Shown in pieces: positions 688 to 57,345 of a stretch of 64,000 bases of DNA. Source of the stretch: Callorhinchus milii (taxonomy: Eukaryota); NCBI RefSeq assembly GCF_018977255.1, contig NW_024704742.1, positions 123,320,001-123,384,000 of the forward strand, in the 5' to 3' direction. Every line of letters starts with the position of its first letter. The first letter of the stretch is position 1. The position numbers were made by a program, and so were the translations under genes. Below the pieces are notes generated by a model, which was not told where the DNA came from, ran no database searches, and worked only from the letters and a program-made list of their open reading frames with translations.

Positions 688-3600
688 GTGAGTAAAGGAG
701 AATTGAGTGCAGATTTTCAATTTGTGATTGTATGATACAGTTTTTGATACTGGGTAATTTTGTGATGCCCTTGCAGATATCAGAAGTCTTTATGACTTTG
801 TTGATTTACTGTATAAATGAAACCGTACAGGACAATGTTTGATAGATCGTTTATTCATTAATTAAAATGTTTTTTTTGTTAGTTAGACGTGGGGGAGGAG
901 GGAGAATTTGACTTGAACGATAAATTTGGTGAATAGTGGGAAGTAATGTGATGCATTCATCCAAAAATCTGCTTAAAATACCGTCCATCACTCCTGTCCT
1001 CTCCAGGCTCACTGACTCTCAGCAAATCGACTTCAAGATTCTCACCATCACCTACAAATACATTTACACCCTTGCATTTCCCTACCTTGTGGAGTCCTGT
1101 AACTTAGTGGTTAGAGCACTCGCCTCGCAAGCGAGGACCTGGGTTCAATTCCCATGCAGCACGAAACGTTAGACAAGTCTCCTTACTCCATATGCCTCTG
1201 TTTACCTAGCAGTAAGTAAGAACCCGGTTGTTAATCGATTGGCAGGTTGCTTTTCCGGGGCTAATAATCCCTTCAAAAATAAAAATAATAATATGGTAAC
1301 TCAATCACCAACCGTTTGGGACACTGCTGTGCGCAATTGGCTGCCGTGTTTCGCCCACAAAATATATGGTCAATTCACTTTACAGTATATTCTGTGAAGC
1401 GCTTTAAGACGGCTCGAATATTACATCAAATACCAGGATTATTATTATTTCTCTTAACTTCTCCAACCTCCCCTTCCTTGCAAAGTCCCAGAATGCGTTG
1501 TTGCAAATCTACGCCCCGAGGCTCTGGAGCTCCCTCACTCCCTTCGCCTCACCCCCTTTCTTCCTAATTTCAGGTCTCGGCTGACCTTTCTTTTCGACCG
1601 CACCTTCCTCCCCCTCCCCCTGGCTCGGCCCCGGGATCCATTACTGTGAAGAGCTCTGAGACACCATCTGGCATGGCGGGCGCCATATAAATCCAAGTTG
1701 TTGTACTGCTTCTCTCCGCTCGTCAAACTGAGGCTTGCTGAGCATCTCCCACCCCCTCTTCCCCAGCATTGACCTTTAACTATTACGAGGCACTCTCTGA
1801 CACTCTACCCCGCCATATTATCGACTCTTACCTGTCTTCAAACAATGCCTAAATACCTATAATAATAATAATCCTTGCATTTGATATAGCGCTTTTCACG
1901 TCGGGAGGACGTCCCAAAGCGCTTCACAGAACACACTGTAAAGTGAATTGACTGTATATTTGTGGGCGAACGCGGCAGCCAATTGCGCACAGCAATGTCC
2001 CACAAACAGTCGTAGATTGAAAATGACCAATTTATTATTGTTTTTTTGGAGGGATTATTATTAGGCGTGTGGAGTAAGGAAACTTGCCCAAGGTTTCGCC
2101 CTGCCTGGAATTGAACTCAGGTCTTTCCTAGCTTGTAGAACATGCCTAAGGCCACATCTTTTCTCCCCCACAATGCACACAAATTTCCAGAACCAATTTA
2201 TTGCTCTATTCTGTACAGTGTGATGTGCGTGTATTCCTGGAACGAACAGTGCAGTGTTTGGAATTCAGGATGCATATGTACTATCCTGGACACTGAACTA
2301 AATTGGCAAATTCAGTTTTCAAAATTGAAATTTAGGTGAAAATCTGTTTCTGCCAAGTCATTTTCAACCCAAACCAAGTATTTATTATTTACAAATTGGT
2401 AAAAATTTGATATTAATGGTCCTTAACATTTTAGTATTTTCATATCAATTTTAATTCAGCCATCAAAATTCTATACAATATTCTCACTTCATAATCTACA
2501 AATATCTGTCATAATAGTCAGTCCATTGTGCGTGCAAGCATGCAGGACATCACACACCTCTCAAATGATTGTCCAAACTGGAAATGGTCATTTAATTGTG
2601 TGTAAATACTCTTATCAGATTTACTTTTTGAATTATCTAGATTTAATAAATATAAAATGTGTTTCTCTCCTCGTCATATAGGAGGTAGCTCAATTGAGAA
2701 TTATGCCTACATAATTCCAGAGTCGCCAATAGTTGAACTTGGATCCGAGCTAAAAGCATCCTGCATTCTCAATGATGACTACGTAAAAGATGTAGACGCA
2801 AATCAGATTTTCTGGAGATTGAAAGATAAACAAATACCAGAAACTCAGTATGTGGTAGTCAATAGAACTGTGTCCAATGTAACATTGACCTTTTCCGATG
2901 CCGGAACTGCACTTCTAACCTGTAATCTACAACTCAATGAAGATCAAGTAGCTACCGTCTTTGGAACAGTTGTCAGAACAGGACGTAAGTATTATTCTGA
3001 GAATTGAATGGGTGGGGAAAAGACAAGAAATTGTGTATGTAGCCTGTTTTTTTTGGATAAGACTGAAGATACGTTTGCCGTCGTATTGCATTAAATAAGT
3101 CATGTAAATGAATAATCGGCATGTTTTGATAATAAGATAGATTTCAGAAATGGATCAGATACTCTTGGATTAGAAATATTATTTTGATAATCAGAAAGCA
3201 AAACTTTTCGTACAGTGTAACTAGTCTTAGATGTGCCATGTAAAACAAATATCCAAATGTTGACAAGCATGAATCACTCACCAGCCTTTTTAAAACTTTA
3301 TTGTAGTTATCAGTAGTAAGTCTTTGAAGATTTCACCATTTGATTCTTATGGGCAGTAAGACTTTCTATTTCTAATCAAGGTTCTATGGATCTCTAAGCT
3401 GTGAGCTAATTTGTGCAAATGTTTTTTGTATTAAGAATTGTGCTAAAATATCCTTCTTTTGATCTTTCATTTAGTACCACCAGAAAAGCCAAAAAACTTG
3501 TCATGTATTACATATTATGACAAAAATATGACTTGTGCATGGGATCCGGGAAGAAATACATTCTTGAGGACAAGCTATCTGCTTCAAATGTCAGTACAAT

Positions 3601-6600
3601 CTTTGTTTGTTTAGTGAGTGATTTAAGATATTGATCACCTTTCTATAAGCTTGATATATACAGTGGAAACCCAGTTTGCAGTCGCCTTGGTAATCCAGCT
3701 GCCTCACAATTGCAGGCACATTTTCAGTCTCTTTCATCGTCTACACTAAAAGATGGGCTGTCGGCTTCAGTAAACCGGGCACCTCACTATTCAGGATAAT
3801 GGTCATTGATTGCGACCGCTACAGCGGTCTACTATACTACACACTATAAAGTATCGTTGGTGAATGTTCATCAGCTTTGACCATTACTAATGCCCTTAAC
3901 ATTACATCAGTGTCCTGAATCACCCGACCTGTTTCAGTAATCACGTCACCTCACAAGTAGGTCACTTTAGCCCGGTCACTTGAGTTACTGGATTAGTGAG
4001 GTTCTACTGTACCTGGAAATTTCTATTTTATTTTTTCTGAACAATTTTTGAAAGACTGCTATCAAAATTCTAATTTTCTTCATTATGTTAAGTGTTCTGA
4101 TCAGTAACCTTTAGTTACAAATTATTTTACATCCTTTTTGATGATCAGTTTTCTCTATTGAGGAAAACACTGAAGCTACTGCAATAATATCCAGTTAGGA
4201 ACAAGCATTTTTACTCAGTTTGATTTTTTTTTAAAAACAGGTTTGTGGGACGTGGCAGTGTTTCTTTCTGCCAATTTTTCTTCTCTCCTCCCATGAAAGG
4301 AATTTCTGAGCCATCTGCAGCTCAAATTGTACCTGATGGGCACAAAATGGCTTCCTTCTTTTCCTGTAATACAGTAACTGCACTTGCCATTAAATACTTT
4401 AAAGTTCTCAATGTAATTAGGTGTTATAAAAATAAAAACAATTCTTATATTAGATGGATTGACTTTCACAACCAGGCTTGACTATGCCAACTCCCTGCTC
4501 GCCTGATTTCCCAACTCTTCCGTCCGCAGGCTACAGACCATTCAGAACTCTGCAGCTCATGTTCTCTCCTGCACCAGGCTTTGGGAGCCTCACCCATCTC
4601 CACTAGCTCACATATCTCAGAGGATTGAGTTCAATATCCTCATCCTAACTTAAATCTCTCCACAGTCTTGTTCCACCCTAACCCTATGACCTTCTAAAGC
4701 CCAAACAACCCTGGCCTTGCTCTCCAAATTGTAGGCACTGACATTATTCACATTCTCTGTCCTGCCCATGTGGTTGAGCCTTCAGGCTTTCTACCCTTCT
4801 CCTGACCCTTTCCCTAAGCTCCTTCAAGATCCATCTCAAGGCATTTCTCTTTGACCACACCCAGAGCAAGCGCTCTGAGACGCCGTCCGGCGTGGAGGGC
4901 GCTATATAAATCCAAGTTGTTATTGTTGTTCGTTCATCTTCCCATGCCCACCCCTCTTGCTTCCCATTCCCCACCCTACCCAAATCCAACCCCCAACTCG
5001 GGTGCAAACCCTCGACTTTCCAGGCCTTGGGATGTCATCCTGTCGTGAAAGGCACTATATATGAATGCAATTTGATGTTGATCACATCGGGAGGATAACT
5101 CAAAGCATTGGACAGGTGGTGGTCAGCCGGGTGTTGACACATGTGGAAATCCATCACCACACTTAAGAGTATCCAAACCAAACTGAGAACTCCATGCATC
5201 CCACCTATGCATGGAAATTCCAGAGAGAGATTGTTGAAATGGAATGCAGTCTCTCCCTGGAGGGATGCACCCTGCTTATTTAATTCCGGAGAGTATTAGG
5301 CACAGGTTGGTAAGAGCCAAGGCTTGGGAACCCCAGAGTGTGCATTGGGGTACTGCTGTAGTCTGACCAGCTGAAATCACATTAAAATCAATGACTAGCA
5401 AGCTTTCCCACTCCTGATCCAGCTAGGATCAACCTGCCCATTAAGGCTTTGGCTTGCAGGTTTAACAGGAGGTGAGTGAGATGATTCCCTGCACGCAGTG
5501 ACTGGTCTGTCCGTCCAAGTCCTGCCGATGATCCAGGCTGGCTGTGCTGTCATCAGCAGCGCCCTGGAGTACTGTGGACCCGTCAGGCTCAGGAACTGGA
5601 CTACCAAGACCGCCACAGAGGGCTGGCTCGATTCTGATACAACTATTGCCAAACATGCTTGAGTGAGAATAAAGTTTGAGAAATCTTGATAAAATATGTG
5701 GTAGGATTTGATTAATGACATTGTACTAAATTTGGCCTCGTTGATCTTAAAACATTTGAAATTTCTAATTCTGTGTTTTTCAGCAATCGATCTGCATATT
5801 ACTTCTTCAATAAACAAGTATGTTTGGCAAAGGATATGGAAAATTTTTGTGTAATTCCCTTTGCAAACATCAGTTACTATGTTGATCAAATTTTCTGGGT
5901 GGAGGCAACTAACGGTTTGGGCAATGCAAAGTCCGAATCCATCATTTTGGATCCAGTTACCGTTAGTGAGTATCATTTTTGTACTTTAAAACAAGTCTGA
6001 GCAGTATGTGAATTGATGTTTTCTCAATTTTTATTGTATAGGATTTGAGATACTATAATATAATAATAATAATAATAATCCTTGCATTTGATATAGCGCT
6101 TTTCACGTCGGGAGGACGTCCCAAAGCGCTTCACGGAACACACTGTAAAGTGAATTGATTGTATATTTGTGGTCGAACGCGGCAGCCAATTGCGCACAGC
6201 AGTGTCCCACAAACAGTCGTAGATTGAAAATGACCAATTTATTATTGTTTTTGGTTTTACTATTGATTATTATTATAATAATCAACCTTGTACATTTGAT
6301 AGATATTTGATCTCCTTGTACATTTGAAATATTGATATTTACACCTATAACTTCTCCCTTTCCATCACTTATTCCACTGAGACTTCCATTTTACAAGCCT
6401 AATATTGGCCCCAAGTAATGAACATTTTGTTACAGGAATGATCATTTCCTCCTAGGTATATTTAGTATTTTTTATATAAAATGTAAATGTCTATATTCCC
6501 AAACTTCCCCTCATTGGCTTCCTACCTCTACTCTCCACAAGTTCCAATCTGTCCAGAACTTGGCAACTTATACAAGGCTGCACGTACTTTACCTATCCTC

Positions 6601-9600
6601 ATCAGGTTCTACTGACTCCAGTACCACAGACGATTGACTAATTTCCTCATCCAGACCTTCAAAGACCATTTTGAAATTGGCTGCTGCATTTCACCCACAA
6701 AATGCATAGTCAATTCACTTTACAATATATTCTGTGAAGGGCTTTCAGGCGTCTCAAGGTGCTATATCAAATGCAACGATTATTATTATTGTTGGTCTAA
6801 CATCTGTTCCAGATTCTCCTCCATCCCACCATCAGTGCCCGAGTCATCAACTATTATTGCTCACTCTCTCTTCCAGTCCCTTTGCCTTGCTCCCCTCCTC
6901 CTTTTAAAAACTCAACTCCTTGATCCTGTCTTTGGTTAACACTCTCCTTGCTCTTCTGAAATCTGGCAAAAGCATCTGGTAGTAGGGAATCATTGCTGCC
7001 CAGCTCTATTTTTGTTTAATTGGCAACTTTTCCTATTCGGAACTCTTTGATTTTTATTTGTAGTGCCTGATCAGAACATTAGCTATACCCGCAGATACCT
7101 GCAGCCTAAGCTTGGGGATTTACTGTATAACATCCTTCATACTGGGTAATATTTTGGATCACTTAATCATTGGTAGAAATAGAAGATACACAACTATTTT
7201 TGGTCATTACCAGGGCCAATAGAAAATTGCGGAAATATTTGCTGTAAAATTGCCGAGAAATCTGTCAAAAATTGCAGGGATGGTTCGTGCTGTTGATACA
7301 TTTTACTGCCAAGCAACATTTTTTCGCTTTATTGATCAAAACTAAATATGAAGAAATAACATATTAGATGGGCTGAATGGCCTCCTTCCTTTCTGTAAAT
7401 TTCTATGATTTATCTAAGGGAGTGAGGAGAGAGTGCAGTAAATGCAGTATTTTTAACCAATCTATTCATCAATAGCTATAGAAACAGTTTTGATAAAAGA
7501 GAATTTGCATTTACTCCTTTTTTTAAAACTTGAAAAAAAACTTCTTTCCCCCGCCTAAGCCACATCCTGTTCCCAAAGGCGAAAAGCAGTTTGCTTGCAA
7601 AATCTGCCTACTGTCTAGTGATTATGAGAGGCACAAGACTATTTGTCTGCCTTTTTTTCTAGCTTCCACCCATGGGACGTCCACTGCAATCTGGCCAAGA
7701 TGTTTTGCAGATACAGTTTTATTCACAAAATGCACAGTCATTCTACTTTGCAGTATGTTCTGTGAAGTGCTTTGAGACGTCTCACTGATGTGATAATGCA
7801 CTACATGAAGTGAAAGGATTATTATTATTACCCCTTTGTAACACAAATATCCAAAATGTGCATGTGCAGCATACAGACTGGGGTTTTGATGCATTAGTGG
7901 AGTGAATATAAAAGTTCTACTTAAATAGATCGATTGCGCCCAGTTATAATGCTGGTTGGAACCAAACTACCATGTTATAATGGGTCTCTACTGTCAAATT
8001 TATCCATACTAAATTAATGTTGTTTGTGTTTTAGTAAAACCTGATCCCCCAGTGATATCCACGGTGCAATCTGCACCAAATATCACCACGATGTTGACTG
8101 TAAGATGGAAAAATCCAGCCATCCTAGCAAACTATCAGCTGAAGTACATTATCCGTTATAGAGCAGTTGATGATCATGAGTGGATGCAGGTAAACTAATG
8201 TATTAAAGAAACTTAAAATACTGAAATATTGTAATCTTTTTGAGAGGAGGGAAGTTGCATCTTGGGTATGTTTTTCTAAATCCACAAATCTGCATTTCCT
8301 TATAATGTATCTAAATTCGGTTCTGCTCAGAATATCTCAGATGTGTAATGCTCTACCAAAAATAATGGTTGAAGCAGAATTCATAATAGCTTTCAAAAGG
8401 GAATTGGGTAAATATTTGGCCTGTGCTGTTAAATTGTACAATTGTATGTATCTTATGTTCAAAGCTACATATCAAGAGTGCAAAAATAGCCTGCAATTAA
8501 GTATACTGTACCAATATCTTTCACTTCCTTGACAGGTTCCCCCGGAGGATACATCAAATCATAGAGAGTCATTCATGCTTCATAACCTAACACCTTTTAC
8601 CGAGTATGTTTTCACAATCCGGTGCAAGAGCAAGCGTGAGGCTGGTTTCTGGAGTGATTGGAGTGCAGAGAAAAGTGGGAGGACTCCTGAAGGCAGTATG
8701 TATAACAAACAAATATGATCGTGAAACGTTTGGTGGTAATGAAACTAGTAGGAGCAGAGCCAGTAATTAAGAAGAAAGTTTAAAAATAAATCCATTCAGC
8801 TATATATTCATTGTCTTTCAAGCATTCTTTTGATTTTACACTGGATAAGTATCTGTTCCAAATATTCCCTTTGCCTATTCCAATTCCAAAGAAGGTTCAA
8901 AAATAGTTGCTATTTTCTACTGCTTTATTTTCTACTCATGCATAAGATCAAAACAACAACAACAACAAGATTCCATTTATAAAGCGCCTTTCACGTCAGG
9001 AGGACGTCCCAAGGCGCTGCACAGTTGGGTCATGACCCGAGCAGGGGGGAAATGGTCAGGGTGAGGGGAGGGAAGGGAGGGAGCGAGGAGGGGGAAGAGA
9101 GTCGAGAGGGGAGCTGAAGGCTCGGTCAAAGAGAAAGGTTTTGAGACCGGCCTTGAAGGAGGAAAGGGAGGAAGCAAGGCGAAGGCACTGGGGGATAGAG
9201 TTCCAGAGCCTGGGGGCTGAGAGGCTGAAGGCCCGACCACCGATGGTAGGGCGGTTGGGGCGGAGGACGTGGAGCAGACCGGAGCCAGAGGAACGGAGGG
9301 TACGGGCAGGTAGGTAGGGGGATAGTAGGTTGGAGAGGTAGGAGGGAGCAAGGCCGTGAATGGCCTTGTAGGTGAGGATGAGGATCTTGAAATCAATCCT
9401 CTGGGGGATGGGGAGCCAGTGGAGGCGAGCGAGGGTGGGAGTGATGTGGTCCCGAAGCCAAGTGCTGAGTTCTGAATGACCTGCAGCCTGTGGAGGGAGG
9501 CGGCGGGAAGGCCGGTGAGGAGAGAGTTCCCATAGTCCAGCCTTGAGGTGACAAAGGCGTGAACCAGGGTTTCAGCAGCGTGAGGGGTGAGGTAGTGCCG

Positions 9601-12600
9601 TAGTCTGGCGATATTCCGGAGGTGATGGAAGGCGGTGCCAGTTGTGGTGCGGATGTGAGGGAGAAAGGACAGCTCAGGGTCGAACAAAACGCCGAGGTTC
9701 CTGACTGGCTTTGAGAGGTGGAGAGTGCAGCCTTGGATGCTGATGGTGTCAGCGCCTGAGGTGCGGAGGCGCTGACGTGAGCCAATCAGGAGGGCCTCGG
9801 TTTTTCGCACGTTGAGCTGAAGAAAGTTGTCTCTCGTCCAGGACTCGATGTCGGACAGGCAGCTGTCAGGACATCGGTGGTCGTGGAGTTGAGAGTAGAG
9901 GAGGAAAGGTAGAGTTGGGTGTCATGCATGTGGAAGTTAACTCCATGTCTGCGGATGATGTCACCGAGGGGGAGCATATAGAGGGTGAAGAGGAGGCGAC
10001 CGAGGACAGAGCCCTGAGGGACACCACATGAGACAGTACGGGGGGGTGGAGGAGAAGCCATTCGTCGAGACAAAGTGAAGACGGTGAGAAAGGTACGACC
10101 TAAACCATGAGGTGGGAAGACAAGCGGTGGAGTAGGATAGCACGGTCGACCGTATCGAATGCTGCCGATAGGTCGAGGAGGACGAGGATGCAGAGGGAGC
10201 CCTGGTTGCAGATGGTCAGGATATCATTGGTGACCTTGACCAGGGCAGTTTCTGTGCTATGGGCAGCACGGAAACCTGACTGAAGGGGTTCGAAAAGTGA
10301 ATGGGTGGAAAGGAAAGAGCGCAGTTGGGAGGCGACAACTCTTTCCAAGACCTTGGAGAGAAAGGGGAGGTTGGAGATGGGCCGGTAGCTTGATAGCTGC
10401 GACGCATCAAGGGAGGGTTTTTTCAGGGTGGGCGTGATGGTGGCAGTTTTTAAGGGAAACCCATCTGTGTGTGTGTCTGTGTACGTGTGAAGGTTTCAGT
10501 TTTGCACATTCTTGACAGCTTGTGGAGTCCTGTAGCTCAGTGGTTAGAGCACTCGCTTTGCAAGTGAGAGACCTGAGTTCAATTCCAGGCAGAGGGCGAA
10601 ACCTTGGGCAAGTTTCCTTACTCCACACAGAGCCTAATAATAATCCCTCCAAAACCAAAAACAATAATAAATTGGTTATTTTCAATCTACGACTGTTTGT
10701 GGGACATTGCTGTGCGCAATTGGCTGCCGCGTTCGCCCACAAATATACAGTCAATTCACTTTACAGTGTGTTCTGTGAAGCACTTTGGGATGTCCTCCCG
10801 ACATGAAAAGCGCTATATCAAATGCAAGGATTATTATTATTATTATTATTATTATCTGTCACAAAGTAATACATCTGTTTTTTTAAATAACCATATGGTC
10901 AAAGGTGGTGATCATAATACAGTGGAGCCTTGTTATAATGAGGTGTTTGGGAATCTATAACATTCCAGCTTGCACTCTAGTGAAGCACAGTAGCCGGTTT
11001 CACTGCTCATGTGTGCAACCAGCCAGTTTGCTCCTTCCACACTGGGACTAAAAATAAAAAAGAGTTGACATGCTGGTTATTGGGTCAGCGCCAATATCAT
11101 TTCATTACTGGGTTCTGACAAAGGGTCGTGGACCTGAAACATTGACTCACTTTCCTTTCTCCATAGATGCTACCTGACCTACTGAGTGTTCCCAGGGACT
11201 TCAGTTTTTGTTTTCACTTCATTACTTCTTGGTTTAGGTACAAACTAACAAGTGTTGTTGTGGTGGCCTAATAACCCAGAAGTTGGCCATTTTTGACCGA
11301 AAGCAGGCTGACATGGGACTGAATTGTATATTGATTTATACATTCAGTACTTAAAACATTTTTGTTTTGATAAAATAGTAACTTGTAATCATAAAAGTAC
11401 ATTTTGCATTACACTTACGTGGAGTCCTGTAGCTCAATGGTTAGAGCACTCGCTTTGCAAGTGAGAGACCTGAGTTCAATTCCAGGCAGAGGGCGAAACC
11501 TTGGGCAAGTTTCCTTACTCCACACAGAGCCTAATAATAATCCCTCCAAAAACCAAAAACAATAATAAATTGGTCATTTTCAATCTACGACTGTTTGTGG
11601 GACATTGCTGTGCGCAAATGGCTGCCGCGTTCGCCCACAAATATACAGTCAATTCACTTTACAGTGTTCTGTGAAGCGCTTTGGGACGTCCTCCCGACGT
11701 GAAAAGCGCTATATCAAATGCAAGGATTATTATTATTACACTTGAAAACGTATAATGTAAAAATAGCTAAGCAAACTCAATTTTAGATATTTAGTATGAC
11801 TGATGCATTCAAATAAGCACAGACTTTGATGAAGAACATTAAATTTCAGAACATTTTTTGGGGTCAGCTGGGCATCTAACATATGTAGAAACCCATCGCC
11901 AAACCAGACTATTTCATGTATGCCACTTTCACATTCTTGTGTCTGGAACACACTCCCCGGAGGCACTTATCCTCCTAACCTAATTTCTACATACTAATCA
12001 AAGTGATCTAACTCCTAGATATATGAACACATGTTCACAAACGTGGACTACAGTTAACACCTTCCAGCTGCTGTCACTCCAAGCCTCAGTTTCCTCATGA
12101 GGTATTTGGTGGACATCGGCCTTCAACAGTTTGTGATGTGCCAACCACCTTGATGTTTTCAAGGTTCAAATCCAATGCCGCCCACCAAGCTTACTCAGCA
12201 CCAGCTACTTAATCCAGGTTCTTGTGTAAGGGGCTTTGGCAAATAGACATTTTGCCCACAAATATACAGTCAATTCACTTTACAGTCTATTCTGTGAAGC
12301 GCTTTGAGATGTCGAGAAGACATGAAAAGCGCTATATCAAATGCAAGGATTATTATTATATTATATTATGTCTGCCATGAAGCTGACTACGTCTGTTGCT
12401 CAGAAACAGGGTTGAGCCAACCCTCCTTGCAGCCGTTAGCCCTGTTTGATCCTGGATGTTCTAAATGGACCAGAGGAATTAATGTTCAGAAATGCTTTCA
12501 GTTTAAAGAATGAAACCACCACCCAAGTGAATAACTCTGGTATAAGATAATTTGAGAAATAATGGAAACTTGCTCTCCATTAATTAGCTTTCATATAAAT

Positions 12601-21600: not shown

Positions 21601-24600
21601 AGATCTCATGCACTATTCGAAAAGGGAAGAGTTTCTCATGGTGTGTGTCCCCCCCCACAAAACAAAAGCAAGGATTATTATCTGGTGATTGAAATTAGGC
21701 TCGAAGGGTATGTGTTTTTAGCTAGTCGGAGACCTGAGGACAGTGCTTGTCAGGTTAAATTGTTCATCTACTTTATCTGTGCTCTCACCCTCATCCACAA
21801 CACCCTCTCCTCCACACTCGACACTCTTGCCCCCATCACCTCCCGTACTGTCTCCTACTCTCGCTCCTCCCCCTGGTTCACCATCCACCTCCGCTCACTG
21901 AAGAGCCAGGTACGGGCCGCTGAACGCACCTGTGTCAAATCTGGCCGGACCTCCTCAAAATCTACCGCTCCACTCTAGCCTCGGCCAAGTCGTCCTTCTA
22001 CTCCAGGATAATCCTGGAGGCAAAGAACAACCCCAGGCTACTGTTTCCTACCACATCCCGACTCCTCCGTTTCCCCCCGCCACCCCGCGCAGGTCATCTC
22101 CTCTAACCTTCACTACGAGGAGATACTGGATTTTCTTGAATCCAAAATCAAGGGAATCCGCTCCGCGGTCACTCCCCCTCCAACTTCCACCCACCCCTTC
22201 CCTCCCACACTCCGACTCCTGCCCATCCTCCCCTACACACCTTCGAACCCGTTTCCCCACCCTCTGTCACCAAACTCATCCTGTCCCTGAAACCCACTAC
22301 CTGCTCCCTTGACCCCATCCCCACTCCACTCCTTATCTCTCAGCTCCACCTCCTTGCCCCACTTATCACAGACATCATCAACCTGTCCCTCTCCTCTGGC
22401 TCTGTTCCCATTCCCCTAAAAACTGCCATCATCACTCCCACTTTGAAAAAACCCTCCCTTGATACGTTGCAGCTATCAAGCTACCGGCCCATCTCCAACC
22501 TCCCCTTCCTGTCCAAGGTCCTTGAACGAGTTGTCGCCTCCCAGCTGCGCTCTTTCCTCTCCACCCATGCATTATTCGAACCCCTTCAGTCAAGTTTCCG
22601 TGCTCCCCATAGCACAGAAACTGCCCTGGTCAAGGTCACCAATGACATCGTGACCATCTGCGAGCAGGGCTCCCTCTGCATCCTCGTCGTCCTCAACCTA
22701 TCGGCAGCATTCGATATGGTCGACCACGCTCTCCTCCTCCGCCGCGTGTCCTCCCACCTCAACCTTCAAGGCTTTTCCTCCACCCCCCGTACTGTCTCGT
22801 GCGGTGTCCCTCAGGGCTCTGTCCTCGGTCCCCTCCTCTTCACCCTCTATATGCTCCCCCTCGGTGACATCATCCGCAGACATGGGGTTAACTTCCACTT
22901 GTATGCAGATGACACCCAACTCTATCTTTCCCCCTCTACCCTCAACTCCACGACCACCGATGTCCTGACAGCTGCCTGTCCGACATCGAGTCCTGGACGA
23001 GAGACAACTTTCTTCAGCTCAACGTGCGCAAAACTGAGGCCCTCCTAATTGGCTCACGTCAGCGCCTCCGCACCTCAGGCGCTGACAGCATCAGCATCCA
23101 AGGCTGCACTCTCCACCTCTCAAAGCCGGTCAGGAACCTCGGTGTTCTGTTCGACCCTGAGCTGTCCTTTCTTCCTCAACCGCGCCACAACTGGCACTGC
23201 CTTCCATCACCTCCGAAACATCGCCAGACTATGGCACTACCTCACCCCTCACGCTGCTGAAACACTGGTCAACGCCTTTATCACCTCAAGGCTGGACTAC
23301 AGGAACTCTCCTCGCCGGCCTTCCTGGCACCTCCCTCCACAAACTGCAGGTCATTCAGAACTCTGCAGCTCGTGTACTGTCCCGCACCAGGCTTCGCGAC
23401 CACATCACTCTCACCCTCGCTCGCCTCCACTGGCTCCCCATCCCCCAGAGGATTGATTTCAAGATCCTCATCCTCACCTACAAGGCCATTCACGGCCTTG
23501 CTCCCTCCTACCTCTCCGACCTACTAGCCCCCTATTTACCTGCCCATACCCTCCGTTCCTCTGGCTCCGGGCTGCTCCACATCCCCCGCCCCAACCGCCC
23601 TACCATCGGTGGCCGGGCCTTCAGCCTCTCAGCCCCTAGGCTCTGGAACTCTATCCCCCAGTGCCTTCGCCTTGCTTCCTCCGTTTCCTCCTTCAAGGCC
23701 GGTCTCAAGACCTTTCTCTTTGACCGTGCCTTCAGCTCCCCTCTCGACTCTCTACCCCCTCCTCGCTCCCTCCCCTCACCATTTTCCCCCTGCTCGGGTC
23801 CTGACCCAACTGTCCAGCGCCTTGGGACGTCCTCCCGACGTGAAAGGCGCTCTATAAATGGAATCTTGTTGTTGTTGTGCTGCATTCACGAGTGCATTTT
23901 CTGCTTAATTTTGATTAACAGTGTCATTTATTTTTCAACAGAACAACGTTGGCCAGAAAGAACCTTTGAATCCAGATGGCATCATTTCAGATCTTAAAAT
24001 AATCGAAGCCGATGTAGGTAGCACAAAATATCTTTCAACTGAGGAGGACATGAAGCCAATCACAACTTTGAAAAAAGAGAAAAGTATGTCAGGAGAGCAC
24101 AGTAGTGGTATTGGTGGTTCCTCGTGTATGTCATCCCCGCGACAGAGTGTCTCAGACAGTGATGATGGAGAGTCAGTACAGAATACTTCAAGCACAGTTC
24201 AGTATTCAACTGTGGCTAGTGATCCATGCTACAAACGACAGGTTCCACCACAGGGCATCGCACGATCAGAATCAACACAACCTTTACTGGAAAATGAAGA
24301 AGAGCATATGTATGGCAATTTGGGAAGCTGCAGTACAGAAATGAAAAGACAGTACTTTAAACAGAACGGTAATATAGAGGAGGCAAATGAAGGAAGCGAA
24401 GCACATATCAATAAATCAGATGTCCCAACTCATCTAAATGGAGGCAGCTTGCTTGGACTAAATGAGCTAAGCATTTCGGACCAGAGCCCTGACTTTGTGG
24501 GATGTCATCCCAGGATGGAGGAGTTTCCAAGCAACAATGAACAAACTGTTGTCAGGCTGGATTTTTTGGGGTTCAATGCAGATCTCGAACCTGATCACAA

Positions 24601-24655: not shown

Positions 24656-27600
24656 AAAGAAGCAAGGCTTCTTATACCTGTATTTGAAATGAATTCACTT
24701 TGCAGCTCTTGCCTCACAGGCCACGTTGTTTTAAAAACTGCCTTTTGTTAGTATTCATCACTATCCTAAATAAGTGATCGTTGTAATCAGAATATCTAAA
24801 GACTGGTAATATTCAGGCTTATAGTTGCCAAGTGTGATTATGAATATTTTGAGTGAGCTGGAATACTCTTGCCACTAGTTATCTTGGATGAGTTGCATTT
24901 TATTTTGTGTTATTTTGTATTTTAAAAAATGCTAACCTGGTTTAAAAAAAAGTTCTACTTCGACACAGCTGTGCTACGTGGTTCTGCTAACAAAATTCAA
25001 AATGATCCATACAGTTATCTCTATAAATTGGTTCTCTCGGGACTATGATACTTTTCTCGTTACTGAAGCGTTTTTTAAAAAAAAAAGACTTGGAAGTGCT
25101 ACATCCATTCTGTAGTGTGAGTATTCATACTCCAACATATCCTATTCCATATAAGTATTGTACTAAGAATTTTTGGAAGTGTTAGATAGAAAGCAATCAT
25201 GTATTTTGGAATGCATAACATCAATTTTAGTACTCCATTCCAAAGTTTTGTCAGACTGACATCTGCGTGATACAAACCAACCATCAGTGATTTATTACAA
25301 ATCAGATTTTACGAGACATCAAAATGCCAGTCAAGTATCGAAGTGATGACTTGGAGTATGTCCTTCTATTAGAAATCTCTAAATGTGAGGTAACCTCAAA
25401 AAATAGCAAGTGTCAAGTTGAGACGGTTTTAAGCTTTTTTTTTAAATGGCAACAGTGGCTTTATAGCACTACATTTTTTTTCAAATAAATAATCTGGCCC
25501 AAAAATACACTACTGTAGTTAAATGCTTTAAAAGAAAAACTATTTTTATGATGAGACAATCTGTTACATAGCATTTTATTTGACAAGCGAGGAGAGAGGA
25601 GCAAATATACCCAATTGTGAAGACAAAACACTGGAGCTAGGAACTATATATTCAGTCAGTTTATCATAGATTGTATTATCTTCCAAATCTGTATGACATG
25701 GCAACATTTTCAAATCTCTTATAGCTATCTTTATAGAATTTTAACCACAAAGCTATCTTACTTATATTGCCAAATGTAGAAAGCTTAACGGAGTTGAATT
25801 TTGAATGTAAGCTTTTCATAAACAGCTTTTTGGGAAAAACGGAAGGTATACCACTTAAAGAAATCCTTTGTAATTTAAGCTTGATGCTTCAATAAATCTA
25901 AGCCACCCGTTATTCTTATTCTCACTTTAGAAAAGCAGCTTTTCTTGATGTAAGCCATACCAAAGCACTTGCTGGATGTTGAAGTAACACTAACACTGAA
26001 CCTGCTTAACACCAAAGGTTCAATTAAATCATGGGAATTCTGTGTTATATATTACTCTGTATGTTAATGGTGAGAATTCCATATGCCAAGAAAGTGATAA
26101 AGTTCAGCCAAATATATATATATAATATATACATATACTGTTATTCCAATTTGTCCAAAACATGTATTTTTTAAAAAGGTTTAAGTTGTACAATTAAACG
26201 CCAAACCAATGGTGATGCTTTGCAACATTTCCTTTGCTTGTGTGATGCCGACCTAATGCCTGGAGGACATGAGCACTTGTCTGTTTCTCACACTATTGTT
26301 AAAAGAGCTCCTGCAACACACAGCCAGTGGGGTGACACTTTTGATTTCCTGTTAAATTTTCTAACCATATAAGAATCAATTTACAATTCTGTTTAGTGGT
26401 GCTCTCCACTCATAACATAGCCTCTCGGTAGCTATTCAGCCCAATAAATAATTAGATCAGAATCCCCATCTATCTACATTTTAACTGGAAGATTCTCACT
26501 GGTTGCAGATTTTTTTTTAAAATTAATAATTAAATGTTGGCAATTTAATCCAGTAATTTTAAGCAGCATAATTTACCTATACACTATGACTGCAAGTTAT
26601 AATGTAGACTTAATGAATAATAAAAAAAATTCTCTGCCATAACAGTTTTTCTTTAAAAAGAATAAAAAGTATACGGTTAGGGCTCTGGCAATGACCCGAT
26701 GCTTTTCTCATTCTATTCGAGTTAAAAATGAATGTACCTGTGTCTTTATTAGAGCTTCTGTTCGGGGTTTGAAAATATTGCCCATACTCCCTCTAGGAAG
26801 GTACTCACTCAGTCCACGGTCTTGCTTCCTATACTTTCTGGCTCCAAAGTTACTAAGCCTTAAACACTGTTACAAATTTGCTTGCAATCCATGTGTTCAA
26901 ATTTTGTATCATAAATGATTGTTATGCAGAAAGTTTCTTAAGTAGCAATAGAATTTGGAGAAATTGATACTTAAGTTCTTTTGACCGCAGTATTATGCAC
27001 GAACTGCCCATTAGAGATGTTTTCAGCAAGGAAATTATTGAATAGTTAATCAAGGTCTATTTTGTATTTAAAGCTAAGATATACTGGAATATTGTATCAC
27101 TAAGGCTAAAATAAAAAGTATGTGTATTTTTAACCCCTCCCTCTTCTCATGTCCTTTGTTTTAGACAGCAAAGAGGAACTCTTGCTACTCTAATTAATAG
27201 TGTTTTTCTAATAGACTAATTGAAATCTATGAACAGTTCCTGAAAATGTTGTGCTCTGCTATTATAGTATGCTTCAGAATTATGTGAGTTGTTTTGGGAT
27301 TAAAGTGTCTGCATTATTTTTACCACCTGTTCGATTACAAATACTTTCAAAGTCAGTATGTTATCTGTACAGATGTTCAGCTATTTAGAAAATGTATATA
27401 CTGCTTGTTTGCTTTACACATATTAAAAAGAGGTTCACAGCTAGAGTACTGCTCTCACAGCTTTGTAAGTAGTAATGCACTTATTAGACTCTTGTGTAGT
27501 TTTCACCACGTAATGTAAGTAGATTCATTTGATGTACAAGTCCAAACATTTGTTTTTATTTGTGTACCTCCGGTCTGCTCCACGTCCCCCGTCCCAATCG

Positions 27601-28180
27601 CCCCACCATCGGTGGTCGGGCCTTCAGCCTCTCAGCCCCCAGGCTCTGGAACTCTATCCCCCAGTGCCTTCGCCGCTTCCTCCCTTTCCTCCTTCAAGGC
27701 CGGTCTCAAAACCTTTCTCTTTGACCGAGCCTTCAGCTCCCCTCTCGACTCTCTACCCCCTCCTCGCTCCCTCCCCTCCCCCTGACCATTTCCCCCCTGC
27801 TCGGGTCATGACCCAACTGTGCAGCGCCTTGGGACATCCTCCTGACGTGAAAGGCGCTTTATAAATGGAATCTTGTTGTTGTTATTGTTGTACCTTTTTA
27901 TTTGATCCTAAATTGTAATATTAGATTGTGTTGACGAACAAGAAGGCTATTAAGGTCATTTTACCTGAAATGTATTATTGGAAGTATTCCCATTTTTTAA
28001 AAAGCATTAAATCTGTGGTACACTTAATGTTCCTAGTTGTATACCATTTACGGTAGTTTTGTTGCAAAGTAGTACTAAAATTCCCAAATGGAATAATTTG
28101 CCTTTTCATAATCAAAGATATGTATGAAATATTATTTTCCAGTAGAAAAAATAAACATCCCGGTTTACCAACTCAGACTG
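24656..28180 (+). other. IL6ST: Probable long 3' UTR of IL6ST
   Basis: About 2.9 kb after the stop with no TE I could recognise, unlike the flanks. Several AATAAA; the one at 28150-28155 is followed by a GT-rich tract. The end is a guess. Confidence 0.5.
27568..27890 (+). mobile_element. L2 3' end inserted in the putative 3' UTR
   Basis: Matches about 23566-23878; TGTACCT repeated at 27563-27569 and 27889-27895 (possible TSD). Confidence 0.9.
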
Positions 28181-38915: not shown

Positions 38916-41800
38916 AACAACAACAACAACAAGATTCCATTTATAGAGCGCCTTTCACGTCGGGAGGACGTCCCAAGGCGCTGTACAGTTGGGTCAGGAC
39001 CCGAGCAGGGGGGAGATGGTCAGGGTGAGGGGAGGGAAGGGAGGGAGCGAGGAGGGGGTAGAGAGTCGAGAGGGGAGCTGAAGGCACGGTCAAAGAGAAA
39101 GGTCTTGAGACCGGCCTTGAAGGAGAAAAGGGAGGAGGCAAGGCGAAGGCACTGGGGGATAGAGTTCCAGAGCCTAGGGGCTGAGAGGCTGAAGGCCCGG
39201 CCACCGATGGTAGGGTGGTTGGGGCGGGGGATGTGGAGCAGACCGGAGCCAGAGGAACGGAGGGTACGGGCAGGTAGATAGGGTGATAGTAGGTTGGAGA
39301 GGTAGGAGGGAGCGAGGCCGTGAATGGCCTTGTAGGTGAGGATGAGGATCTTGAATTCGATCCTCTGGGGGATGGGGAGCCAGTGGAGGGGAGCGAGGGT
39401 GGGAGTGATGTGGTCCCGAAGCCTGGTGCGGGACAGTACACGAGCTGCAGAGTTCTGAATGACCTGCAGCTTGTGGAGGGAGGTGCCGGGAAGGCCGGCG
39501 AGGAGAGAGTTCCCATAGTCCAGCCTTGAGGTGATAAAGGCGTGGACCAGAGTTTCAGCAGCGTGAGGGGTGAGGTAGTGCCGTAGTCTGGCGATATTCC
39601 GGAGGTGATGGAAGGCGGTGCCAGTTGTGGCGCGGATATGAGGGAGAAAGGACAGCTCAGGGTCGAACAGAACACCGAGGTTCCTGACTGGCTTTGAGAG
39701 GTGGAGAGTGCAGCCTTGGATGCTGATGCTGTCAGCGCCTGAGGTGCGGAGGCGCTGACGTGAGCCAATCAGGAGGGCCTCAGTTTTGCACACGTTGAGC
39801 TGAAGAAAGTTGTCTCTCGTCCAGGACTCGATGTCGGACAGGCAGCTGTCAGGACATCGGTGGTCGTGGAGTTGAGAGTAGAGGAGGAAAGGTAGAGTTG
39901 GGTGTCATCCGCATACATGTGGAAGTTAACCCCATGTCTGCGGATGATGTCACCAAGGGGGAGCATATAGAGGGTGAAGAGGAGGGGACCGAGGACAGAG
40001 CCCTGAGGGACACCGCACGAGACAGTGCGGGGGCTGGAGGAAAAGCCATTCGAGAAAACAAAGTGAAGATGGTGGGAGAGGTACAACCTGAACCACTCAA
40101 GGACAGGGCCTTGAAGGTTGAGGTGGGAGGACAAGCGGTGGAGGAGGATAGCATGGTCGACCGTATCGAATGCTGCCGATAGGTCGAGGAGGACGAGAAG
40201 GCAGAGGGAGCCCTGGTCACAGATGGTCAGGATGTCATTGGTGACCTTGACCAGGGCAGTTTCTGTGCTATGGGCAGCACGGAAACCCGACTGAAGGGGT
40301 TCAAATAATGAATGGGTGGAGAGGAAAGAGCGCAGCTGGGAGGCGACAACTCGTTCCAGGACCTTGGACAGGAAGGGGAGGTTGGAGATGGGCCGGTAGC
40401 TTGATAGCTGCGACGCATCAAGGGAGGGTTTTTTCAAGGTGGGAGTGATGGTGGCAGTTTTTAAGGGAATGGGGACAGAGCCAGAGGAGAGGGACAGGTT
40501 GATGATGTCTGTGATATGTGGGGCAAGGAGGTGGAGCTGGGAGATAAGGAGTGGAGTGGGGATGGGGTCAAGGGAGCAGGTGGTGGGTTTCAGGGATAGG
40601 ATGAGTTTAGTGACAGAGGGTGGGGAAACGGGTACGAAAGTGTGTAGGGGAGGATGGGTAGGAGTCAGAGTGTGGGAGGGAGAGGGTGGGGGATGGGTGG
40701 ATGTTGGAGGGGAAGTGACCGCGGAGCGAATTCCCTTGATTTTGGATTCAAGGAAATCCAGCATCTCCTCACAGTGAAGGTTGGAGGAGATGACCTGCGC
40801 GGGGTGGCGGGGGGGACGGAGGAGTCGGGATGTGGTAGAAAACAGTAGCCTGGGGTTGTTCTTTGCCTCCAGGATTATCCTGGAGTAGAAGGACGACTTG
40901 GCCGAGGCTAGAGTGGAGCGGTAGATTTTGAGGAGGTCCAGCCAGATTTGTCGGTGGACCGTTAAGCCAGATTTGACACAGGTGCGTTCAGCGGCCCGCA
41001 CCTGGCTTTTCAGTGAGCGGAGGTGGGTGGTGAACCAGGGGGAGGAGCGAGAGTAGGAGACAGTACGGGAGGTGATGGGGGCAAGAGTATCGAGTATGGA
41101 GGAGAGAGTGTTGTGGAGGAGGGTGAGAGGAGAAGAGGGGTCAGTGAGGGTTGAGAGGGGAAGAGAAGTTCAGAGGACTCCAAGGCAGCGGTTAGGGATT
41201 GTGGAGGTAACTTCTTCCAGGGGCGGTAGAAGATGGTGGTGGGTCTGGTGGAGGTGGGGAGGGGGGTGGAGGTGGTGAAGGAGATGAAGTGGTGGTCGAA
41301 GACGACCTTGTCGGTGATAGTGACATCCGAGACACTGAGGCCCCGGGTGATCACCAAGTCGAGTGGGTGGCCGTGACTGTGAGTGGGGGAGTTGATGTGG
41401 AGGGAGAGATTGAGCGAGGAGAGCAGGGAAGAGAAGTCTGAGGAGATGGAGCAGGAGGGGGTGAAGTGTAGGTTGAAGTCGCCCAGGATGATGAGGCGAT
41501 CAGAACAGAGGCAGAGAGATGTAAGAAGTGTCGAAATATCGTAGATGAAGGTGGGAGAGGTTTTAGGGGGCCGGTAGTATTATTATTGCTATTATTATTG
41601 CTATTATTATTATTTTTGAGCGAGAGTAAGGAGGGGTGGGAGAGGGTGAGGTGCTCGAAAGAGGGGAAAGAGCCAGAGGAGTTGGGGGATAGGGCAAGTG
41701 GTGTCCTTGAGATAAGGGCTACACCACCGCCACGGCGGTTGGGGCGAGGGATGTGGTGGGAGGTGTAGCCGGGTGGTGTGGCCTCCGTGAGGGGGAAGGC
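38916..41800 (-). mobile_element. L2-clade LINE with nearly complete but frameshifted ORF2 (APE endonuclease + RT)
   Basis: EN motifs PPGY...PRPNRRGGGVALI and DHH; RT ORF 39769-41001 with PQGSVLGP and YADD; C-terminal ORF 39020-39793; (AAC)n tail. Confidence 0.97.
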
Positions 41801-43180
41801 CATATATAAATGCAATTTGTTTTTGTTGTTGTGCTGTAAGACATCTCAATAATGTAATAAAGTGCAATATAAAATACAAGGATTCATTTATTTTATTCAC
41901 TTCGGACAACAACAAATTTAGAAATGATCTAGAGGCAATAATTTTACATAGAATTACATAGACTGTTACAGCACAGGAACAAGCCATTCCTTTCAAATGG
42001 TCCATGCCAGTGTCAACCTCTTCTTTATGTATCCATCAAACCACTTAAGAATGTTATTTATTTGTTTTATTAATGCTCTTGGTTTAGGTTGCTGCTTCTT
42101 TTTGTTGCACTTCTTCCTCCATTCAAACGCCATTGGATCTCAAAGACTCTTGGAACAACGTTCATCATACACAGTCACCACACTTTACAGTCAAACTGTG
42201 AAGCATTTTGAGACTTTCAGTGACAAGATAAAATGCTATGTCAAATGCAGGTATTATTATTATTGCTATTATTATTATCCCTTTAAAGCGATTTGTTATT
42301 TTTGTCCTAACTGCATTTTCACACGATCACAAGATTACAAGATTTGGATGAAGCAAGCCTTCAGCCCATCCAATCTCATCCTTTCAGCACACCTATCCAT
42401 TAAATTGCTTTTTAAATGAGTACAGTGTATCTCCTCTGCCAACATTCATGGAAACCTAGTCCAATATTTTGTTTAAAAACCCTTGTTTATTAGTCTTCAG
42501 TGTTCCCGCTTCCCACCATCAGAATGCAGGTTTCTTCATTTCTGTTTTGCAATCTTTTTGAGGTTAACTTTGCAACAGTCTTATTGTGACACCATTTAGC
42601 AAATTGTTATTTCAATGTCGCCCAGGCCTTTCTATGGAATAACGCAACCAAGACCAGTGAGAGAGGAGAGTTTAGATTGTTTTGCTATGTATTTATTTTT
42701 TTTAGGTAAGGGTTTCAAGGAATATAGGGCAAGGGCTTGTAATTGGAATCAAGGTACAGATCAGCATGATCTTGTAGAAAGGTGGAACAGGCTCGAGGGC
42801 CTGAATGGCCTATGTTCCTATGTTACAACACAATACAATACAAAATTGCATTTGTAAAGCGCCTTGCAGGTCGGGAGGACGTCCCAAGGCGCTAATGTTC
42901 CTATGTTACTTTTAAATACAGCCTTTCATGGAACTTGTTTGTGAGGCACTGTCTTTTAATCTCAATTCAAAGTTTTTGTCTACATTAAAATGCTTTAATT
43001 TTCTTCCATACATTAACATAGTTATTCCTATCAACTTTTGATGTAAAAGTATGAATGCATTGATACTTTTTGCAAATTTTACAAGTATAAATAAACTATC
43101 AGAGCCTGTTTCACTCATGAAGCAGTACTACATACTGTGCATTTGTTTTGTTCAGCCAGCTGTCTGACACATGCGGAGAT

Positions 43181-49751: not shown

Positions 49752-50575
49752 TTTCTATATGCTCCCCCTTGGTGACATCATCCACAGACATGGGGTCAAT
49801 TTCCACATGTATGCGAATGCCACCCAACGGTACCTCTCTGTCTCCACCCTTGACTCCATGTCTGTCAGACATCAGTACTTGGATGAGAGGCAACTTTCGT
49901 CAGTTGAACGTCAACAAGTCCGAGGCTCTCCTGATTGGCTCCTGTCAGCGCCTCCTCACCTCAGGCGCTGACAGCATCACCATCCATGGTTGCACACTCC
50001 ACCTTGCTAAGCCAGTCCGGAACTTTGGGGTCTTGTTTGACTCTCAACTGGTGCACTATACATATAATTTTGTTGTTGCTGTTGCTTTCCCCCACCTCTG
50101 GAACGTCGCCCGGCTCAGCCATCCCGTGTTCTCTCCTGCACCAGGCTCCTTAACCTACCAGCACCATCCTCGCTTGACTCCACTGGCTTCCCATCACACA
50201 GAGGATACAGTTCAAGATCCTGGTCCTCACCTTCAAAACTCTCCATGGCCTTGCTCTCCCTACCTCTGGGAAGTCCTAACACCCTACCAACCTGCCCACT
50301 CACTCCACTCAGCCTGTTTCATGTCCCCCGCCTCGCCCACCCCACCATTGACAGGTGGGCCTTCAACCACTCTGCCACCACCCTCTGGAACTCCATCCTG
50401 CTGTCCCTCCGTCTCGTCCCCTCCCTTACTTCCTTCAAGACCCATCCCAAGACCCTCCTCTTCAACTGTGCTTTCCTGACCCCCCAGAGCAGGTCTGAAG
50501 CATTGATTGTCCATCGCCTTGGGACGTCCTCCCGATGTGAAAGGCGCTATACAAATGAAATGTTGTTATTGTTGT
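49752..50575 (+). mobile_element. L2 3' fragment, older
   Basis: [31 protein letters not shown]; tail hairpin. Confidence 0.88.
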
Positions 50576-55089: not shown

Positions 55090-56025
55090 GGATGGTTGGG
55101 GGGATTAGGAGGTCAGAGAGCTAGGGGGGAGCAAGATTGTGGAGGTGAGGAACAGGATCTTGAACTGTATTCTCTGTGTGATGGGAAGCCAGTGGAGTTG
55201 GGCAAGGATGGGGGTGATAAGGTCACGGAGCCTTGCGGGAGAGGACACGGGCTGCAGAGTTCTGGATGATCTGCAGCCTGTGGAGGGAGGAGTTGGGGAG
55301 GCCGACAAGCAGTGAGTTTGCGTAGTCGAGCTTTGAAGTAATGGAGGCCTGTATGAGGGTTTTGGTGGCCCGTGGTCTGAGACAGTGTCGGAGCCAGGCG
55401 ACATTGCAGAGGTGGGGGAAGGCAGAGCCTATCATGGTGCAGATGTGGGGTAGAAAGGATAGTTGAGGGTCAAACAAGACCCCAAGGTTCCGGACTGGCT
55501 CAGCAAGGTGGGGTGTGCAACCATGGATGGTGATGCTGTCAGCGACTGAGGTGAGGAGGTGCTGACGGGAGCCAATCAGGAGAACCTCAGTCTTGTTGAC
55601 GTTCAACCAAAGAAAGTTAGCTCTCATTCAGGACTTGATGTCTGACAGACATTCTGTCAGCACAGCAGTGCTCCTGGAGTCAAGGGTGGAGGCAGAGAGG
55701 TACAGCTGGGTGTCATCCGCATGCATGTGGAAGTTGACCCCATGTCTGCGGACGATGTCACCAAGAGGGAGCATATAGATATTGAAGAGGAGGGGACCAA
55801 GGGCAGAGCCCTGAGGAACGCAACACGAGATGGTCCGGGGACTAGAGGAGAAGCCGTTTGTGGAGATGAAGTGCAGGTGGTGTGAGAGGTATGATCTGAA
55901 CCAATCAAGGACAGCGTCATGGAGGTTGAGCTGAAAGGAGAGGCGGTGGATCAGGATAGAGCGGTCGACGGTAGCGAAAGCAGCAGAGAGATCAAGGAGG
56001 ACAAGGAGGCAGAAGGAACCCTGTG
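55090..56025 (-). mobile_element. L2 RT fragment, older subfamily lacking the shared frameshift
   Basis: [48 protein letters not shown] in one frame. Confidence 0.9.
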
Positions 56026-57020: not shown

Positions 57021-57345
57021 GTGGAGTCCTGTAGGTCAGTGGTTAGAGCACTCGCTTTGCAAGTGAGAGACCTGAGTTCAATTCCAGGCAGGGCGAAACC
57101 TTGGGCAAGTTTCCTTACTCCACACACCTAATAATAATCCCTCCAAAAAACAAAAACAATAATAAATTGGTCATTTTCAATCCACGACTGTTTGTGGGAC
57201 ATTGCTGTGCGCAATTGGCTGCCGTGTTCGCCCATAAAACACATAGTAACTCACTTTACAGTATAAACTGTGAGGCACTTTGAGCATCCTCCCAATGTGA
57301 AGGGCAATTCACCAAATGTAAGGATTATTATTTTTATTTTATTAT
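57021..57345 (+). mobile_element. tRNA-derived SINE, short form
   Basis: Collinear with 11419-11737. Confidence 0.9.

Follow-up and report, generated by a model that had tools for sequence, protein, structure and literature searches.

Non-autonomous LINEs and recurrent frameshifts

Several derivatives of LINEs, such as NARTc and RIME of trypanosomes, HAL1 and R2 SIDE, are incapable of producing a reverse transcriptase (RT) of their own, have kept the 3' end required for recognition, and are found in high copy number. These are monophyletic deletion derivatives, in which the RT is no longer under selection. Ordinary dead-on-arrival LINE copies are truncated and undergo neutral decay after insertion, with lesions that are normally private to each copy. 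Another situation is encountered at hairpin-linked frameshift hotspots, where Streisinger slippage or quasi-palindrome template switching repeatedly generates the same indel at an inverted repeat and leaves a more perfect palindrome; the known cases are rare events in replicating DNA. Finally, corrective or 'savior' frameshifting has been described for indels located in a needed open reading frame (ORF), with selection acting on both halves (PMC5009743).

The element considered here shares with the stringent L2-clade LINEs, represented by eel UnaL2, zebrafish ZfL2-1 and ZfL2-2, and L2-2_CM, an ORF with an RT and a putative endonuclease, a 3' stem-loop, a short tandem-repeat tail and heavy 5' truncation (PMC5499810, PMC3747384, PMC4176376). 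The tail of L2-2_CM is also found in SINEs of Callorhinchus milii (PMC5499810). In this family, a single base is missing from the RT gene of many copies. In contrast to NARTc/RIME, HAL1 and R2 SIDE, the lesion is limited to one base, is polyphyletic and occurs in copies that appear to descend from selected source lineages; unlike the lesions of dead-on-arrival copies, it recurs at a fixed base; and unlike the products of known hairpin-linked hotspots, it apparently constitutes most of the output of a retroelement. As in corrective frameshifting, both halves of the ORF bear marks of selection, but there is no slippery site or homopolymer run, and in-frame copies occur in each lineage. For a majority frameshift distributed polyphyletically over selected lineages and situated at the tip of a predicted hairpin, the literature searched, which lay outside Repbase and most subscription journals, contained no like case and no L2 family with a majority frameshift scattered over several selected lineages.

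L2 copies in the window and their shared deletion

The window, that is the whole stretch of 64,000 nucleotides of C. milii DNA that was analysed, contains three young copies of the element: copy A (8952-10458, minus strand), copy B (21782-23878, plus strand) and copy C (38916-41800, minus strand). All have different 5' truncation points. C is the longest and starts inside the endonuclease region, A starts just ahead of the RT domain, and B between these two; the initial annotation had referred to a near-full-length element, a description that applies to none of the copies in the window. Across the junction, the alignment of A, B and C is identical and reads CTG ACA GC TGC CTG TCC GAC ATC, with the incomplete codon at 9862-9863 in A, at 22971-22972 (plus strand) in B and at 39845-39846 in C. 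This GC is the remainder of a GCC codon, the 20th after the YADD motif, from which one C is absent by comparison with the in-frame allele. An intact sister form with the complete codon (ACA GCC TGC, with the extra C behind 22971) is indeed present in public data. A motif search of the window located the deleted motif at 22968 (plus strand), 39849 and 9866 (both minus strand), and the in-frame pattern only once, at 55657 (minus strand). The deletion is the sole indel common to A, B and C; compared with C, copy A has 4 further indels and copy B has 7, and these two sets do not overlap. Thus, the proposal that three young L2 copies carry the same one-nucleotide deletion was upheld by motif search, alignment and translations, as was the observation that an older related copy, D (55100-56023, minus strand, 77% identical), has retained a full codon (ACA GAA TGT, 55652-55654) and stays in frame. 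A further older relative, copy E, occupies positions 49754-50520 on the plus strand.

Copies A, B and C are independent insertions. Local duplication and assembly collapse, both raised as alternatives in the initial annotation, are unlikely in view of the unrelated flanks, the orientation of B opposite to that of A and C, the distinct truncation points and a pairwise identity of 93-95%. B and C have a single family-rare site in common, a CpG-type change at 22022.

Other repeats were noted in the window. The young L2 family is further represented by short fragments of its 3' end at 200-421 and 27568-27891, neither of which extends to the break. The 5' end of copy C (41800-41850) adjoins an apparent inverted LINE/SINE 3' tail remnant, judged by a tail pattern that we take to be typical; the endonuclease region of this copy includes an expanded (AAT)n-like microsatellite (41578-41616), and about 4 nt near 41155 are missing by comparison with the database gene model P0001. 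Two 320-nt repeats (10522-10842 and 11419-11738), 97% identical and about 900 nt apart, probably represent a young SINE family, with many relatives across the window (1859-2127, 6055-6275, 57021-57347).

Identity of the element and effect of the break on the RT

The ten best protein matches of the element were all from C. milii (77-96% identity), followed by fish LINE RTs with about 50% identity. The RT domain matched Pfam RVT_1 (E 6e-31), and its solved-structure matches were R2 and L1 ORF2p. The family member P0001 matched Exo_endo_phos_2 with an E value of 7e-4, which is below the curated cut-off, the N-terminus lying outside the window; the corresponding stretch is contained in copy C. In the 3' tail of copy C, a stem-loop is predicted ahead of (TTG)n at positions 38916-38995 (minus strand; z -3.3, 0/200 shuffles). 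The RT domain, together with the 3' stem-loop and the tandem repeat of the tail, places the element in the L2/CR1 group of non-LTR retrotransposons, of which it is an ordinary representative. The L2 label itself comes from the initial annotation, the tail and features that we presume to be those of the family.

In copy B, the YADD catalytic motif of the RT is encoded at 22902-22913 (plus strand). Past the break, the 0 frame enters junk and ends after 25 codons at a premature TAA (23046-23048, plus strand), and CLSDIESW carries on in the -1 frame; translation therefore bears out what had been described for this frame. In copy C, the downstream half of ORF2 (39023-39844, minus strand), which comprises the last part of the RT core and the C-terminal region, stays open over 274 codons of the -1 frame and has no ATG. 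Since the truncated product matches RVT_1 positions 2-163 of 205, versus 2-201 for the in-frame relative P0247, the break takes away the last part of the RT core together with everything beyond. Re-initiation was set aside, the 274-codon downstream frame having no ATG. Splicing at the acceptor-like CTGACAG was also dropped, as any intron would either cut out YADD or be too short.

Frequency of the deletion in public data

Contigs from eight public runs were aligned to the junction and the contig depth of both alleles was compared. The deleted form accounted for the larger share in seven of the eight runs, with an in-frame depth of 34,972 out of 407,127 in X1, 34,880 out of 336,055 in X2, 1,411 out of 35,554 in X5, 1,097 out of 6,577 in X7, 392 out of 3,188 in X11, 0 out of 147 in X19 and 0 out of 144 in X18. 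The remaining run, X17, which has another organism label, yielded the in-frame form only (depth 13.2/13.2, a single 353-nt contig); this contig aligns to 39660-39930, is a 98.5% identical in-frame copy and may come from a related species or from mixed-in DNA. The raw in-frame share of 0-17% in the seven other runs is an undercount reflecting poor gap detection. Control indels private to B, at which the whole family should differ, were detected at rates that varied between runs and between sites, over a range of 0.6% to 100%, from 1,466/243,023 (2 nt) and 16,256/20,545 (1 nt, collapsed depth) in X2 to mostly full detection in X18 and X19. Both alleles were found in runs from 2013, 2014, 2022 and 2025, as well as in database gene models.

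We estimate that in-frame copies represent 10-45% of the family. The deleted form appears to be the majority of young copies, as suggested by the public runs, especially X18 and X19, and by the three of three copies in the window, a figure that is one of depth and not of copy count. The relative depth of the two alleles in these runs indicates that, as had been anticipated, the deletion is general in the family and not private to the copies in the window.

Several other frameshifts are shared in the family. One is an additional base behind 39955 (copy C frame), which accounts for 1.8% of the raw depth in X1; gene models P0001, P0006 and P0242 end at 39955 as LPLW, and this position is the base of another strong predicted hairpin (39955-39903) spanning the YADD codons. 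Two-base deletions at 23341 and 23672, shared within the family or its relatives, reach 20,026/869,222 in X2 and up to 212/406 in X19. These frameshifts (behind 39955, at 23341 and at 23672) are not located at predicted loop tips.

Both states on the same haplotypes

Database searches provided 27 gene models of the young C. milii family that reach the junction, a set biased towards open frames, with 18 of them in frame and 9 deleted. TACLSD is not obtainable from deleted DNA by base skipping, so that the in-frame models mirror the assembled sequence. The deleted and in-frame states share derived haplotypes in at least four sub-lineages. In one group, defined by derived markers, P0244, P0245 and P0255 are in frame and P0256 is deleted; in another, P0092, P0252 and P0254 are in frame and P0121 is deleted; a third combines P0002, P0243, P0247 and P0248 (in frame) with P0251 and P0010 (deleted), and a fourth combines P0003, P0249 and P0259 (in frame) with P0007 (deleted).

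A tree was built from the upstream protein of 30 gene models and window copies, excluding P0004 and P0126, which were ambiguous, and six models that end before, or nearly at, the junction. At least nine state changes were counted on this tree, a soft figure given its weak resolution: only 2 of 27 inner branches were starred, the bootstrap had not settled, and the protein models are ORF-biased with few informative sites. One of the starred groups (P0003, P0259, P0249 and P0007) is itself mixed. A single clade uniting the 11 deleted rows was rejected (p-AU 9.6e-5), and the end branches of deleted rows (0-0.004) are as short as those of in-frame rows.

Among deleted copies, upstream and downstream markers are linked (3/3 and 4/4, p 0.03), and this linkage speaks against one crossover event at the hairpin. 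The lineage markers nearest to the break are located 31 nt upstream and 55 nt downstream, and short conversion tracts would therefore go unseen. One sub-lineage departs from the mixed pattern. The SHM group (P0122, P0126 and P0253), named after a non-synonymous change from FHM to SHM, is deleted in 3/3 models versus 6/24 of the other models (p=0.03), and its members have SHM and an AV reading in common on two different flanking haplotypes. This SHM/AV block looks like the transfer of a patch of about 80 nt or like a broken lineage copied in trans. The three models also carry a TGT variant; the positions concerned, with that of SHM, are 39861, 39842 and about 39923 in the copy C frame. The deletion together with TGT yields a perfect 10-bp palindrome, GACAGCTGTC, and SHM improves the stem in a neighbouring hairpin.

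Selection on both sides of the break

Pairwise differences among A, B and C were synonymous in 21/42, 27/37 and 28/61 cases in the upstream half of ORF2, the second of these figures being that of the A versus C upstream haplotype, and in 24/44, 17/33 and 17/31 cases in the downstream half. A neutral simulation that preserved the observed base-change spectrum revealed a synonymous excess in all six pair-by-half tests (p 0.007 or less). Variable columns fell at codon position 3 in 47/90 cases upstream and 28/54 downstream, and this enrichment persisted after removal of CpG sites (38/70 and 21/38, respectively). A transition or CpG bias behind the synonymous excess was thus ruled out by the codon-position test without CpG sites and by the spectrum-preserving simulation. 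Values of pN/pS among deleted copies ranged from 0.13 to 0.43 upstream and from 0.28 to 0.32 downstream, similar to those obtained in comparisons with the in-frame copy D (0.17-0.32).

Family variants were also divided by depth, 22574 being taken together with 22572 and 39788 being judged against the family codon. Among the variants listed, those private to B (at least 90% of family depth differing) comprised 8 synonymous and 18 other changes, a ratio that is about neutral and resembles the private decay of ordinary dead-on-arrival copies; those shared in the family (10-90% of depth) comprised 26 synonymous and 5 other changes (Fisher p 1e-4 versus the B-private class). A dead master should pass on neutral differences, and the predominance of synonymous differences indicates that the alleles of selected source lineages found in A, B and C are not the same. 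These substitution patterns show that purifying selection acted on each half of ORF2 in the source lineages of the three copies. The source expected for a non-autonomous LINE derivative, with no selection on ORF2, is at odds with a synonymous excess found on both sides of the break.

A predicted hairpin at the site of the break

In copy C, the site falls within an imperfect hairpin of 65 nt predicted at 39814-39878 (minus strand), with a loop at 39845-39842 and a folding energy of -30.2 kcal/mol (z -5.2, 0/200 shuffles). In copy B, the predicted core (22947-22997, plus strand) folds at -26.6 kcal/mol (z -4.6, 0/200 shuffles) with an apical loop CUGC at 22972-22975. The initial annotation was right about the deletion, and had missed the position of the lost base, which is the apical loop of this strong predicted hairpin. 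The upper 20 pairs of the copy C hairpin had pair probabilities of 0.95-1.00 in a 400-nt fold, and the break fell within the predicted loop in every folding window covering the site. With a z-score among the five best of 281 folding windows, the hairpin has several equally strong counterparts in the element, and stable loops of any kind account for 218 of 2885 positions (7.6%). The DNA strand of the hairpin folds at -20.3 kcal/mol, and the deletion generates the perfect palindrome CAGCTG. No match above chance was returned by an Rfam search at the hairpin, the two matches obtained being at chance level.

The history of this structure can be partly followed in older relatives. These have Asp or Glu at the junction codon and are in frame (a set that is ORF-biased except for D), and the CC dinucleotide of the GCC codon is found only in the young lineage. 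Copy D has kept an 8-bp stem at the same place, within a fold that is unremarkable overall (z -0.3). Compared with D, copy E has lost 23 nt that include the 5' arm of the hairpin, and this deletion ends at the loop (49857/49858); this is one case. Joints at the hairpin tip made up 1 of the 15 breakpoint joints listed in each of two run sets, and no conclusion was drawn from this number.

Origin of the deletion

The deletion is real and more interesting than the product of one broken master. As the reading that we favour, with a probability of about 0.45, the one-base deletion would arise anew, at high frequency, when intact selected masters are copied, most daughters being born dead. Selection on the source lineages suggests that ORF2 acts largely in cis, in which case broken copies would not be expected to serve as the main sources; a broken majority that includes the youngest copies without being the source would then imply fresh production at each round. 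The RT may unwind the 3' arm of the hairpin and pause at its tip, where the end of the cDNA could slip by one base in the CC of the loop, as in a -1 slip of the Streisinger type. The same outcome would be expected from loss during second-strand synthesis, or from nicking of the hairpin tip by host repair. Insertion of ZfL2-2 involves Artemis and other NHEJ factors, the accessible part of that study making no mention of a hairpin role (PMC2666801). Some of the broken daughters would probably be copied onward in trans. We are aware of no case in which a run of two bases gives a one-nucleotide slip at a frequency of tens of percent, which counts against fresh loss. So do the SHM/AV block on two flanking haplotypes, the shared frameshifts away from loop tips, which imply that broken sources do spread in the family, the weakness of the protein-model tree, the uncertain in-frame share and the presence of other hairpins as strong as this one. 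It is more tentative still that the element would be a LINE with a built-in self-inactivation hotspot, in which a hairpin in the RT gene drops one base in most new insertions and leaves few daughters active.

The deletion might otherwise have arisen once or a few times and moved as a short patch, through RT template switching at the hairpin pause or gene conversion begun at the hairpin, with broken recombinants being amplified in trans by intact partners, much as L2 enzymes mobilise SINEs. Such an exchange, which we regard as rather unlikely, would account for the SHM and AV readings accompanying the deletion on two flanking haplotypes and would leave no trace in the 86-nt stretch around the break, which has only two common variants; it is also in line with the other shared frameshifts of the family and with the SINE-L2 tail sharing reported in C. 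milii (PMC5499810). Yet, a double exchange within about 85 nt would be needed in each of at least four lineages, with broken sources then outrunning intact ones. Free action in trans should relax selection, against the 26 : 5 synonymous ratio among the shared variants listed, and deleted copies are no older than in-frame ones. Trans copying from one near-full-length master carrying the deletion, as put forward in the initial annotation, has in its favour the identical deletion in the three of three young copies of the window, the majority of this form in public runs and the intact L2 tail stem-loop. Only part of that proposal stands: the deleted-only SHM group fits the copying of a broken source in trans (p=0.03), but a single source for the whole family is largely refuted by the rejected monophyly (p-AU 9.6e-5), the mixed haplotypes, the synonymous divergence and selection on both ORF2 halves among several source lineages, and the lack of a second lesion shared by A, B and C, so that a lone master is hardly tenable.

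Selection on both halves among deleted copies would also be expected if deleted masters still obtained a full-length ORF2 product, either from a -1 shift of the ribosome or from a C inserted during transcription, and both frames are open over a 136-nt overlap with a strong predicted hairpin at the site. Such recoding is improbable, as the overlap has no X XXY YYZ heptamer (two have YYY only and none XXX), consistent with what had been noted for the site itself, nor any shared run that exceeds AAAA. Up to 39877 the common variants are synonymous in the 0 frame, and from 39842 onwards they are so in the -1 frame; a shift would be confined to the roughly 30 nt in between, within the stem. Moreover, the strong predicted hairpin encloses the break, where a stimulatory structure would lie 5-9 nt 3' of the shift site, the downstream frame has no ATG, and the in-frame twins in every lineage would be unexplained. 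The accessible part of the work on 'savior' frameshifting mentions no such shift within a LINE RT (PMC5009743). A sequencing or assembly artefact producing one allele from the other by read errors would likewise be independent of lineage and age and tied to the hairpin. Inverted repeats and GGC, both present at the junction, trigger Illumina errors, but the accessible text describes mixed miscalls and not clean deletions (PMC3141275). Given also that both alleles occur in gene models and in runs of 2013, 2014, 2022 and 2025, that X17 is in-frame only and X18 and X19 are deleted only, where control indels were mostly seen in full, and that the SHM sub-lineage is 3/3 deleted, an artefact is highly improbable. 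The loss of a C after insertion, at a hotspot of genomic DNA forming the hairpin in single-stranded state, would agree with the -20.3 kcal/mol of the DNA strand and the palindrome CAGCTG created; however, end branches of 0-0.004 in deleted rows leave little time for it and intact masters would soon be lost, making the chances of this route very slim.

Implications for LINE biology

Frameshifts shared by LINE copies are usually read as the legacy of one broken master, and a consensus built from the majority of copies would here designate this L2 family as non-autonomous. If the deletion is made during copying, the LINE RT would commit an error that is both site-specific and very strong, one that may act as a brake on the activity of the element. 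If spread occurred by patch exchange and trans copying, the family would measure the weakness of cis preference in stringent L2 elements. Should the self-inactivation hotspot be true, it would cap the spread of the element and provide a natural read-out, open to counting, of how faithful a LINE RT is at an RNA structure.
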